Assembly: GCA_038207085.1 (NCBI GenBank)
Contig: JBBRAE010000033.1
Location: 1-26,722 of the forward strand
Direction: 5' to 3'
Source of the DNA: Armatimonadota bacterium
GTDB lineage: Bacteria > Armatimonadota > UBA5829 > DTLH01
DNA length: 26,722 bases
This document shows, piece by piece, positions 878-26,720 of this stretch. The first letter of the stretch is position 1. Each line of letters begins with the position of its first letter. The position numbers and the translations under genes were made by a program. The notes under the pieces are model-generated. The model was given only the letters and a program-made list of their open reading frames with translations, searched no databases and was not told the origin of the DNA.

Positions 878-1019
878 GGGGAAATAAGGGGACTGAGCCC
901 TTTGTTAAGCCTTTCGCGGTCGGCCTCTTCAACTACCGATCGCGCTACTCTTAGCATGGCAGCAGTATACAATCTGCTGGATATTTTGCCAATAAAGGGC
1001 TCAGTCCCTTTATTTCCCC
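878..1019 (-). mobile_element. Mini-RAYT / REP-flanked non-autonomous element, copy 1
   Basis: Terminal inverted repeats AATAAGGGGACTGAGCCCTTT...AAAGGGCTCAGTCCCTTTATT. Near-identical reverse complement of 26582-26720. The interior encodes MLRVARSVVE fused out of frame to RGRPRKA*. Confidence 0.75.
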
Positions 1020-1028
1020 TTTATTTCC

Positions 1029-1199
1029 GACATCCAGAGCGCGAACAATACCCTGGGGACAGGCGAGTATCCGCTTGTGAAGTACTCCTATGACTCCTTT
1101 GGTCGGAAAGACAAGGTTACCACTTACTCGTCTGCCTCTGAGACGGCGGCACGTGAGACCAAGTACGCCTACGACAAGGCGAACCGGGATAAAAGGTGA
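1029..1199 (+). pseudogene. Rhs/YD-repeat protein fragment
   Basis: Frame reads DIQSANNTLGTGEYPLVKYSYDSFGRKDKVTTYSSASETAARETKYAYDKANR, with two YxYD-xx-(G/N)R motifs. No start codon; bounded on both sides by palindromic repeats. Confidence 0.7.
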
Positions 1200-1211
1200 C
1201 AGGCACCTTTT
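1191..1211. repeat. REP-like palindrome
   Basis: AAAAGGTG-ACAGG-CACCTTTT inverted repeat directly after the YD fragment. Confidence 0.65.
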
Positions 1212-7244: not shown

Positions 7245-7274
7245 ACCCATAAATTAACTTAAACCAGCAGAAGC

Positions 7275-7376
7275 TAAGTTGGCCCAGATTTACCTAAGTT
7301 GTAAGTTAGCCCGGATTGAGCCGATGTTGGCCCGGATTTACCTAAGTTGGCCCGGATTTGCAATCCGGGCCAACTT
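7275..7376. repeat. REP-like palindrome with tandem half-copies
   Basis: Three degenerate AAGTTGGCCCGGATT half-sites, then the full palindrome AAGTTGGCCCGGATT-TGC-AATCCGGGCCAACTT (7344-7376). Confidence 0.8.
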
Positions 7377-7563
7377 GGCAGTCAAGGGATCTGTGATCCC
7401 GTTCTTTCGACCGTGCCCAACCTACCGGCATCACAGATGCCTATTCTGCCTGATCGTCCCGGATCACAGTTCCGGACGAACGAGAGGTGCGCCTCCTCGC
7501 CTGTTTAGCCTCGTCCAAAACGGGATACTCTGGGGTTAGTTTTGCACTATGGAGAGGCGACAC

Positions 7564-13637: not shown

Positions 13638-13716
13638 TAGCCCGCTTTATTCGTGAAGCGAATAAAGCTCTTGCTAAGAGAGCATCATTCACGCTTCTCG
13701 TGAATAATGCGGGATA
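13638..13716. repeat. REP doublet (REPIN/BIME-like), copy 1
   Basis: Two hairpins, GCTTTATTCG-TGAAG-CGAATAAAGC and GCATCATTCACG-CTTCT-CGTGAATAATGC; inverted copy at 22556-22636. Confidence 0.8.
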
Positions 13717-13776
13717 GTAGTCTTTGCAGTAGACTGTTGACGCAATCAAACCTACTGTTAAGAAGGGGTGTTGACG

Positions 13777-22338: not shown

Positions 22339-22555
22339 CAAGCGACAACAAGATGCTTCGGTCCAAGACTACTGGGCCGAAGCATCTGGTATGTTCACTT
22401 GTTACTTTGCACTTTCGACTCGAAACACATCCACCTCGTGCCCGCCAGAAGTCGCCTGGTAGGGAGCGATCCACTGCCGTGCCATCTCCTGAAACTCGGG
22501 TGCGAGGCTTCGTAGAATTCTCTACTCAAGCCACAATATTCAGGTTAATCCGACA

Positions 22556-22636
22556 CTAGCCTGCATTATTCACGAGGAGCGTGAATAATGCTTTGCTAGC
22601 GAGAGCTTTATTCGCTTCACGAATAAAGCGGGCTAG
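22556..22636. repeat. REP doublet (REPIN/BIME-like), copy 2
   Basis: Reverse complement of 13638-13716 with few differences; its end overlaps the lpdA stop codon. Confidence 0.8.
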
Positions 22637-25180: not shown

Positions 25181-25255
25181 GGGCCCATAGCTCAGCGGTA
25201 GAGCGGGCGGCTCATAACCGCTTGGTCCCTGGTTCGAATCCGGGTGGGCCCACCA
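25181..25255 (+). tRNA. tRNA with CAT anticodon, most likely tRNA-Ile2 (lysidine)
   Basis: GGGCCCA acceptor stem, AGCTCAG D-arm, CTCATAA anticodon loop, GGTTCGAATCC T-arm and encoded CCA. Resembles ileX-type tRNAs rather than initiator Met. Confidence 0.93.
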
Positions 25256-25739
25256 TCAACTAGAGGAAACCTTTTTTCTATGCAAATCGACCCTGCCGGA
25301 CTTCCGGCGGGGTTCTCGCGCATTTACGAGAGGGAATCTGGCTCTTATCGGGTGTTATCGGCAGTCTATCTTGTGGCCGAGGTTTGCCCTGAGAACCCAC
25401 ATTGGGGGACATTTTCTCTCTGTTTGGCGGGTTTTCTCTGAATCTTGTGGTCGAAGGGCAAGTTCGACCACAAGACCACCAGCGACTGATCTCGTCGGGC
25501 CAAGCTTATGTGCTCGCCAGACTGGAGGCTCGTATGGATCGGCGTTCTGTCGAGTGATAGGGTGCGACTGCGGGAACTCAGTCCGGTGATAAGCGTAAGA
25601 CTTATCGAAACCGGCGTTCCCGCAGAATGCAAACCCTGGGTTTTTCGTCGTTTTGAGCGTGGAGTTCGTGCTCAGCAGGATAAGAACGGTCACTTGCCGA
25701 ACACTGTAGTGACGGCGGATGTTGCATTGTTTTTGGAGT

Positions 25740-25760
25740 AAAAAGGGCTCCGTCCCCTTT
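25740..25760 (+). repeat. Solo REP end of the mini-RAYT family
   Basis: AAAGGGCTCCGTCCCCTTT versus AAAGGGCTCAGTCCCCTTA at the element ends. Confidence 0.7.
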
Positions 25761-25766
25761 CTCCCT

Positions 25767-26033
25767 CAGAAGATGCTCGACCAGGCAAAGAGGACTTATA
25801 AGGAATGTTTGAAGGATGCCGGTAAGGATGCACAAGCTTGCTTCGACAAGTGCGATCTGATGGCTTGGGTTCCGGGGTTTGCACCTCTTGGATATGCTGC
25901 CTGTTATGAAGGGTGTTCCTACGCCTTCACATACAGGTGGAATGTATGCACCAACTCGTGGAACAAGAGCATGAAGAACGCCGACGAGTGGCTCGACTGG
26001 TGTCTGAAGAAATGCAAGAAAAAGAAGAGGTAA
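25767..26033 (+). pseudogene. N-terminally truncated Cys-rich helical-hairpin domain; candidate orphan Rhs toxin tip
   Basis: Begins right after the REP with no RBS; has 8 Cys, six of them mirror-symmetric; tightly followed by a small membrane gene. Confidence 0.5.
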
Positions 26034-26037
26034 GCCG

Positions 26038-26511
26038 ATGGATTCAAGAGTTCTCTACCCACCTAGAGATTTTATGCCAACATCAGCAGTATGGGGTTTC
26101 TGGGTTGCAGCGTGGATGGCTTCAAGGAACTGGGCAATGATGGGGCAGCAAACACGTGGCCGTCGGCTGCTATTCACCGCAGTTGTCGCCCAGATGGTCC
26201 TCTGGTTGTTGTTTATCACTGGTATACACCTCGCCTGCTCGATCTTCGGAGGTGCTTCCGGTGAGGTGATCTGGACATGGCCCCCAATTGCTACAAGAAT
26301 GCTAATAGCAGGCTTGATGATGATTGTCAATGGGGCAGTTGGCTATGGGTTGTACAGGAGTCAGTCGGAAGCAGTATCGGCTTGGACATCAACTCAACCC
26401 ACGCCATCGGTATCCAGCCCTTATGTTTCATGGCAGTTCTCAATAATGGTCATCTCTGCCACTTTGATAATCGCTCTTGTCTTCTTGGCTTTGGTATTGA
26501 GTGTCCGTTAG
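26038..26511 (+). CDS. Multi-pass membrane protein; candidate immunity protein
   Basis: 3-4 hydrophobic segments; GAGG RBS overlapping the end of the upstream ORF; AT-richer than the core genes. Confidence 0.65.
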   Translation: MDSRVLYPPRDFMPTSAVWGFWVAAWMASRNWAMMGQQTRGRRLLFTAVVAQMVLWLLFITGIHLACSIFGGASGEVIWTWPPIATRMLIAGLMMIVNGAVGYGLYRSQSEAVSAWTSTQPTPSVSSPYVSWQFSIMVISATLIIALVFLALVLSVR

Positions 26512-26581
26512 GTATTGATGATGCAAGATTATACCTGTAGCTTGTAAGAACCACATCCGGGCCAGTAATAGCCCATCTATT

Positions 26582-26720
26582 GGGGAATAAAGGGACTGAG
26601 CCCTTTATTGGCAAAAGATCCAGCAGATTGTATACTGCTGCCATGCTAAGAGTAGCGCGATCGGTAGTTGAAGAGGCCGACCGCGAAAGGCTTAACAAAG
26701 GGCTCAGTCCCCTTATTTTC
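26582..26720 (+). mobile_element. Mini-RAYT / REP-flanked non-autonomous element, copy 2
   Basis: Same TIRs as copy 1. TTGGCA-N17-TATACT promoter; ATG at 26643 (MLRVARSVVE); RGRPRKA* at 26672-26695. Confidence 0.75.

Follow-up and report, generated by a model that had tools for sequence, protein, structure and literature searches.

Orphan Rhs-CT/RhsI pairs, as the main accounts describe them, retain a piece of the core, variable in length, and are located downstream of an intact rhs (Jackson 2009, PMC2935791; Starsta 2020, PMC7043789). Displacement of one tip by another is described there as requiring core homology and a circular intermediate (PMC2935791), and internal starts are described as allowing orphan pairs to work as toxin-antitoxin modules (PMC7043789). 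HUH/Y1 enzymes, in turn, nick and rejoin single-stranded DNA at their own ends, according to the main descriptions (PMC6006769, PMC8266576). TIRYT/TIRtrons, the TnpA-Y1 subclass 2.1, are reported to carry a GGGGWSAS motif in their repeats (Di Nocera 2013, PMC3733652; Quentin 2018, PMC6006769), and RAYTs are characterized as typically single-copy and non-duplicating (Bertels 2017, PMC5581495). For TnpA-REP beside prochlorosin genes it was proposed that the RAYT diversifies a neighbouring antagonistic gene family, and the authors of this proposal, who withdrew the causal claim, themselves state in the main account that there is no strong evidence for or against causation (10.1101/2020.03.09.984088). 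How new Rhs tips arrive and why orphan arrays grow are open questions, as the standard model depends on circular intermediates without specifying an enzyme that makes them. The use of RAYT-type transposases to their host is likewise an open question.

The window analysed here is the whole contig C33 (26,722 nt) of genome G000, an assembly of 3.35 Mb in 83 contigs; in the following, G numbers denote genomes, L numbers extracted loci, C numbers contigs of G000 and P numbers proteins. At its right end a DivIC-family gene is followed by a tRNA(CAT), a remnant of about 230 nt, a hairpin dimer, a repeat of about 135 nt, a Cys-rich frame, a membrane gene and a 137-nt element at the contig end. The frame and the membrane gene are a piece of an Rhs polymorphic-toxin locus, a tip with its likely immunity gene, and both edges of this cassette face TIRYT ends. 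The features to which we refer are the following.

25181..25255, + strand: tRNA with CAT anticodon, most likely Ile2, the anchor of the variable site (ARAGORN; comparison of the three CAT tRNAs of the genome)
25256..25485, + strand: conserved non-coding remnant (four further copies in the genome at 70-75%; matches in relatives)
25563..25630, no strand assigned: hairpin dimer (65 nt) of a third repeat family, GCGGGAAC...GTTCCCGC (29 motif matches in the genome; fold z -5.4)
25631..25765, + strand: repeat of about 135 nt, element B, ending in the TIRYT terminal repeat (copies on C21, C30 and C72 at 95-96%, partial copy on C43)
25740..25765, + strand: TIRYT terminal inverted repeat, facing outward into the tip (the same repeat flanks full 220-aa Y1 genes in genomes of the same order)
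25767..26033, + strand: Rhs C-terminal toxin tip of 88 codons with 8 Cys, without core and lacking about the first 12 tip codons (phmmer matches P0001 and P0002; alignment; structure model)
26038..26511, + strand: hydrophobic membrane protein of 157 aa, likely the cognate immunity gene (homology to a G383 gene; hydropathy)
26582..26718, + strand: mini-TIRYT of 137 nt with left repeat, promoter, about the first 9 and the last 8 transposase codons, and right repeat (copies; alignment to full TIRYT; promoter scan)
882..1018, - strand: second mini-TIRYT copy, at the other contig end (99% inverted match to 26582-26718)
1020..1190, + strand: scrap of YD repeats from an Rhs gene (Rhs of relatives matched by tblastn with a best E of 5e-8; PF05593 at E 0.01 does not reach the cut-off)
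1191..1211, no strand assigned: terminal repeat of a second TIRYT family, AAAAGGTGACAGGCACCTTTT (19 motif matches; flanks other mini-TIRYTs on C41 and C43)

An earlier note on this DNA had called 25767-26033 a start-less Cys-rich frame and taken it for an orphan Rhs tip. An open frame with eight cysteines indeed runs from the repeat to the TAA at 26031-26033, but it is not strictly start-less, as in-frame ATGs lie at 25719, within the repeat, and at 25773, neither with an obvious ribosome-binding site. Its nature as an orphan Rhs tip is confirmed by the comparison with Rhs C-termini, since its homologs follow an Rhs core. Searching 1.84 billion representative proteins with the tip (phmmer) gave three matches, two of which, P0001 (42% identity, E 1e-11) and P0002 (43%, E 4e-8), are Rhs proteins scoring above the cut-off of TIGR03696, with the match beginning past the DPxG motif of the core; the third, P0003 (E 2.5e-4), is repetitive and was set aside as chance. 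A homologous tip after the DPxG of an Rhs core is also present in L127. When 400 other genomes of the phylum were searched in six frames, two further matches appeared: in G383 an orphan Rhs core is followed by the same tip, and the match in G324, a frame opposite a secDF-like gene, was set aside as chance. The alternative that homologs of the domain are standalone proteins never fused to YD repeats is thus contradicted, as the homologs are fused to YD/Rhs cores. Alignment with them places the start of the window frame about 12 codons inside the tip, with loss of the first conserved Cys. No core fragment is kept by the tip and no Rhs core was found anywhere in this assembly; four of five genomes of the same family carry three to four cores. 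Within the contig no intact rhs lies 5' of the tip, where instead repeats, the tRNA and the DivIC-family gene are located, and nothing Rhs-like was found upstream of element B. The proposal that the 5' boundary of the cassette is set by the REP and not by Rhs core homology is supported, the boundary being the element end.

The second gene of the cassette had been described as translationally coupled to the first. The membrane gene is there, but it does not overlap the frame before it; it starts after a gap of 4 nt behind the tip stop, and its AGAGG ribosome-binding site sits within the last codons of the tip. Over 154 aa its product shares 40% identity (E 6e-26) with that of the gene directly after the homologous tip in G383, so that the two genes are kept together at one independent locus, in agreement with the immunity-like role assigned to the partner earlier. 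Immunity genes are usually recognised by their conserved linkage behind a tip, and the linkage in G383 makes 26038-26511 a likely cognate immunity gene as judged from sequence comparison. A word-index search with the partner returned the partner itself only, and a complex prediction of tip and partner (score 0.01) speaks neither way.

Pfam and NCBIfam profiles assigned no family to the tip or to its partner. The tip was modelled as a two-helix hairpin (pLDDT 78), for which a fold search gave no solved-fold match at E 0.001; a word-index homolog search found nothing, an ESM Atlas search gave no match, and no catalytic motif is evident in the tip. With neither a profile family nor a solved fold, tip and partner appear to represent an uncharacterised toxin-immunity family. 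The modelled disulfide-rich helical hairpin, its hydrophobic turn and the membrane-bound partner suggest, at slightly better than even odds, that the tip would act on membranes from outside the cytoplasm. Moreover, the ATG at 25773 may allow use of the pair as a toxin-antitoxin module from an internal start.

What bounds the cassette had been described as a solo REP (25740-25760) on one side and a mini-RAYT on the other. The repeat is real, with AAAGGGCTCCGTCCC beginning at 25742 within a weak hairpin (z -1.9), but it is not solo, being the right end of element B with the hairpin dimer just before it. Three further full copies and one partial copy of element B occur in the genome, each with a different outer flank. 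The 137-nt element on the other side is present as well; it is, however, an internally deleted element of the TIRYT type and not a classical GTAG-REP RAYT. Eight near-full copies exist in the genome, and the element aligns with both ends of a full 220-aa TIRYT gene in L030 (G023) and contains a sigma-70-type promoter, TTGGCA-17-TATACT, at 26608-26636. As regards the definition of a MITE, it is non-autonomous and multi-copy, and its terminal inverted repeats match those of the parent TIRYT; no target-site duplication is visible by eye in the aligned flanks of copies with both sides. The terminal repeats flank a Y1 transposase gene as inverted repeats in L030, L130, L131 and L134 (PF01797 58 bits, cut-off 23). 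Within the order 4 of 36 genomes, and within the phylum 32 of 401, have full TIRYT genes of the cognate type, and none was found in this assembly; two Y1 genes of this genome detected with Pfam and two more detected by tblastn have other flanking repeats and were rejected as the cognate enzyme. The assignment to TIRYT is based on length, end structure and published descriptions. Compared with GGGGWSAS, the window repeats read GGGGACGG or GGGGACTG (7 of 8) and the second family has GGGGACAG in many copies; the GTAG tetranucleotide is absent from the hairpin foot at 25740 and at 26582, and the TIRYT enzyme scores 68 bits against NF047646, under the cut-off of 80. At the other end of the contig, the YD scrap of 170 nt is flanked by the second mini-TIRYT copy and the terminal repeat of the second TIRYT family.

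Outer ends of TIRYT elements often stutter, repeating the terminal 8-12 bases in two to four partial copies arranged in tandem (G000 C9:412 and C40:22833, L027, L121, L209, L222, L250), and such ends may record repeated joining at one end. In addition, hybrid elements are found in G000, in which the end of one repeat family is fused to that of another (C9:386-426, C49:22-50, C56:11399-11450, C72:2397-2526), indicating that the repeat families recombine with or target each other. In G019, dimers of the window repeat lie inside reading frames that are open on both sides (L144:2093-2120, L145:2016-2040, L146:2082-2130), apparently as in-frame insertions; the interrupted genes are presumably housekeeping genes resembling mfd, dnaE and mnmA.

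The site itself is a hotspot at which several small elements are stacked, with four repeat families at the tRNA(CAT). The tRNA had been called tRNA-Ile2, a call that stands by elimination, the other two of the three CAT tRNAs in the genome being of the Met types; these we take to show initiator and elongator Met features. The remnant 25256-25485, directly adjoined by a tRNA in six of nine loci of relatives that were read, probably represents the terminus of an integrative island whose target is the 3' end of tRNAs. Non-coding sequence of this type, about 200 nt long, lies 3' of tRNAs in many relatives, and G000 itself has copies on C70, C48, C39 and C78; the C70 copy adjoins what are presumably recombinase-like island genes, and the C48 copy a frame that we take to be reverse-transcriptase-like. 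The cassette is AT-rich as had been stated, with 49.5% G+C against 57.0% for the genome, and only 0.8% of 820-nt windows of the genome are as low. Small intergenic repeat families also occur in the window at 13638-13718 and 22555-22635, and at 7274-7481.

Are element ends associated with Rhs DNA elsewhere in this genome? All three YD scraps outside C66, namely those on C17 and C28 and 1020-1190 of C33, lie within 1 kb of a TIRYT end, a distance that covers 1.7% of the genome, 5.4% of low-GC DNA and 8% of DNA near contig ends (5-10% allowing for both). The 44 TIRYT ends form 27 loci, most of which adjoin other truncated genes or non-coding DNA. TIRYT ends thus cut whatever is dispensable, and Rhs is over-represented without being the sole victim. 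Enrichment of the repeats next to Rhs, toxin or immunity fragments had been suggested as a check, and for this genome the ends are indeed over-represented beside Rhs scraps; most of the 27 loci are nevertheless non-Rhs, and elsewhere the family is seldom near cores. C66 itself (7.1 kb, 53.6% G+C) encodes an open YD-repeat protein of 2031 aa that is cut at the contig end, with no element end nearby and an N-terminal part in which we assume a transglutaminase-like motif; unlike the Rhs type of the relatives, it may be foreign or mis-binned. On C30 a stack (L157:1-3350) opens with a mini-TIRYT, behind which lie a start-less frame (weak PPPDE-like motif), a membrane gene, the truncated gene of an ankyrin-like lipoprotein and another mini-TIRYT; next come a gene of 376 aa and a 244-aa frame, likewise start-less, with element B as its boundary. 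This stack possibly holds more toxin-immunity pieces. Its start-less frame and membrane gene were considered as a second tip-immunity pair and not counted, the frame being found in 0 of 300 other genomes and matching PF05903 with E 0.03 only; a word-index search with it found nothing among longer proteins. The idea that C33 and C30 form one array is not supported, as the two element copies differ and the loose end of the run contigs was not found in the assembly.

For the TIRYT family at large, flanks were scanned with the core profile and by tblastn, a survey that detects cores and YD repeats and is blind to core-less tips. Rhs was near 1 of 115 loci with the window-type motif (71 of them at least 5 kb long), near none of 19 repeat loci of relatives (which overlap with the 115), near none of 40 TIRYT loci of the phylum (G023 not among them) and near 7 of 80 metagenome TIRYT loci, 6 of which are independent. 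In Phycisphaerae, 1 of 38 TIRYT loci and 0 of 40 other Y1 genes had Rhs nearby (p 0.49). There is thus at most a modest excess and no obligate link. Where TIRYT and Rhs meet, the element often cuts Rhs DNA: in L222 a TIRYT lies inside an Rhs tip, in L310 one truncates an orphan core, and in L030 the left end of a TIRYT is joined to a 50-nt copy of neighbouring Rhs-locus DNA.

It had further been proposed that RAYT/REPs form a system that excises, captures or shuffles toxin and immunity modules. A coupling of REPs and Rhs is strong in relatives, for another RAYT family than that of the window, whereas a dedicated system is not established. G383, the genome with the homologous tip-partner pair, has 53-55 Rhs cores and no copy of the terminal repeat of the window; it carries 59 Pfam Y1 matches, at least 97 matches to a single RAYT of 177 aa and another REP motif in 359 exact copies, a motif without any exact copy in G000, all in an assembly that is 68% complete, rich in indels and has many frameshifts. 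The RAYT passes NF047646 (83.6 bits, cut-off 80) and has inverted hairpin repeats on both sides. Among 36 genomes of the order, G383 leads in Rhs cores (others at most 13) as well as in RAYT copies (others at most 11). These copies, full or partial and often nested or in tandem (L395-L398, L380), differ by up to about 15%, carry different tips and have sharp REP ends with unrelated flanks; copy number, sharp ends and unrelated flanks together make the RAYT look actively transposing. Within 5 kb of a core lie 17 of the 59 Y1 matches (11 of 32 by clusters), compared with 5.4% of the genome, and 42 of 59 lie farther away. In 21 stretches of G383, picked because they hold cores or RAYTs, a REP end lies within 170 nt of the start of 31 of 55 5'-truncated Rhs pieces (9.5% for random positions in these stretches), and a REP marks the end of 14 of 24 3'-truncated pieces (against 1.5%). 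One core position is the start of 12 pieces, with a REP detected 141-150 nt upstream in 10 of them; nine of the pieces sharing this junction reach the end of the core, and they carry nine different tips. A second shared junction accounts for seven more pieces, and the orphan with the homolog of the window tip starts 2 nt from a REP end. Furthermore, each of the 29 RAYT pieces that lie within 3 kb of Rhs DNA in G383 is on the Rhs strand. Next to the shared junction the cores that follow it have about 90% of their sequence in common, a value that drops to about 70-75% at greater distance; they are no closer to each other than to other cores, a pattern that suggests recombination within the core after the junction arose. 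Twenty array stretches from 15 further genomes of the order, in which no Y1 gene was found, contain related REP-ended elements before orphan cores in G013 and G010 only and not clearly in the other 13. Rhs DNA lies within 1.5 kb of 8 of 17 REP matches in the single-contig G013 and of 4 of 12 in G010, two genomes that belong to one genus, share a junction and are not independent. At two recurring REP-core junctions (L402, L403, L404, L380) the element provides an ATG in frame with the orphan core. In a few relatives, element ends edge many toxin cassettes, which suggests that they help to copy and reshuffle toxin arsenals.

How could such junctions arise? In the reading that we prefer, with a probability of about 0.5, ends of HUH/Y1 elements cut and move Rhs pieces in the course of their own spread, and the cassette on C33 is a dead-end relic. 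A transposase supplied in trans would nick single-stranded DNA at the element end, and the nicked end would be joined to new DNA, whereby neighbouring genes would be cut and a flanking stretch sometimes carried along or copied. At C33 the element end would have been joined about 12 codons inside the tip, leaving tip and immunity gene at the tRNA hotspot among repeats. As no core is left, the tip could not recombine onto a full Rhs protein and would be a relic, of which the intact immunity gene may still be useful. In the relatives, events of this kind, there caused by another RAYT family, would fall inside the core and create units of REP, core, tip and immunity gene that could multiply and swap tips by homologous recombination. 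Cuts in the core would thus yield recombinable units and cuts in the tip relics. Reshuffling would be a side effect of the spreading elements, one that the host may put up with or benefit from, and the piling-up of most G383 RAYT matches away from Rhs fits such selfish spread. Against this reading, neither a circle nor a joint or an empty site was detected in the contigs, no full TIRYT gene was found in this assembly, and the link of the window's own element family to Rhs cores is weak outside this genome; the strongest evidence stems from a single assembly, that of G383, and from another RAYT family.

Alternatively, small elements might insert anywhere and persist mainly where DNA is dispensable and AT-rich, as in Rhs arrays and tRNA islands, with ordinary deletions next to them removing the core and nothing being captured or moved. 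The neighbours of most element ends in this genome, truncated non-Rhs genes (presumably an AbiEii-like fragment, an IS66 tnpB, an oxidoreductase and an ankyrin-like lipoprotein) or non-coding DNA, are what such passive survival would predict, as are the stack of four repeat families at the tRNA and the lack of enrichment in Phycisphaerae. Random insertion would, however, not be expected to give 29 of 29 co-oriented pieces, for part of which a replication-strand bias could account, nor an identical REP-core junction with nine different tips, nor short Rhs copies fenced by element ends, and we regard this explanation as rather unlikely. An assembly artefact in which repeats joined unrelated contig pieces is very improbable. 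Contigs of this genome do often end at these repeats, and G383 has its many frameshifts, but one independently assembled contig spans 25731-26507 without differences, from 35 nt before the junction (its run may be the source sample), and the G383 RAYT copies differ in sequence and in the tips they carry. Contig depth over the cassette is 7 against 14.5 and a second run has no cover; neither was used as evidence.

RAYT/TIRYT enzymes and their repeats could also be a dedicated, host-selected system, the recombinase and the cassette ends of a tip library, which would supply the circular intermediates of the displacement model. The joint lead of G383 in cores and RAYT copies, the REP matches beside Rhs DNA in G013 and G010 and the in-frame ATG at two recurring junctions could be read in this way. 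It is at odds with the absence of these repeats from most Rhs arrays of the order, with the location of most RAYT copies, not near Rhs and nested in each other, with the many junctions that destroy tips or cores, as at C33, and with the non-independence of G010 and G013, which are of one genus and have a junction in common; we consider a dedicated system distinctly unlikely. An order-wide version, only marginally less doubtful, pictures a host-selected Rhs shuffling machine of HUH (RAYT/TIRYT) transposases and repeats that would peel off single-stranded circles of repeat end, core, tip and immunity gene, which re-insert or recombine into arrays, with the C33 cassette as a mis-cut product. If true, this machine would be where the circular intermediates of tip displacement, so far lacking a source, come from. 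Under the by-product reading, the C33 cassette alone is a relic of modest interest, and the relatives provide a strong lead towards remodelling of Rhs arrays by RAYT/REP elements. With element ends at the boundaries of orphans, RAYTs strictly co-oriented with Rhs and both expanded together in G383, the origin of tips and arrays as well as the host role of the transposase become testable with one enzyme and defined junctions.

One-ended transposition of IS91/ISCR and peel-and-paste of IS200/IS605 offer HUH chemistry, single-stranded intermediates, one-end capture of flanking DNA and no target duplication. These elements have other transposase families and end structures, and we know of no demonstration of such capture for TIRYT or RAYT. 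Unlike in an integron cassette array, which has a fixed insertion site and whole-gene cassettes, the junctions described here lie at many positions inside genes. The G383 enzyme resembles RAYT/TnpA-REP as described in the main accounts (PMC5581495; Corneloup 2021, PMC8266576) in passing NF047646 and in its inverted hairpin repeats at both sides, and differs from typical RAYTs as portrayed there in having at least 97 matches interleaved with Rhs arrays. TnpA-REP at prochlorosin genes has another cargo than Rhs, and the caution on causation in the main account of it applies equally to the RAYT-Rhs association (10.1101/2020.03.09.984088). The element family of the window shares with TIRYT/TIRtrons an HUH/Y1 transposase of about 220 aa, flanking terminal inverted repeats, possibly with a counterpart of GGGGWSAS, and solo and dimeric repeat families; the main descriptions in these accounts make no mention of internally deleted mini-elements, hybrid ends or Rhs junctions, and the term rhs occurs 0 times in their main texts (PMC3733652, PMC6006769). 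In the literature searched, main texts mostly outside subscription journals, no link of RAYT/TIRYT to Rhs orphans was found, and one paper with both RAYT and Rhs treats them separately in its main part. With the orphan Rhs-CT/RhsI pairs of the main accounts the C33 cassette shares the low-GC tip with its linked partner, detached from the delivery part, and a tip that elsewhere occurs on full and orphan Rhs, but unlike those pairs it has no core and starts at a transposon end. Both components are of known kinds, and the coupling of RAYT/TIRYT with Rhs appears to be the new part.
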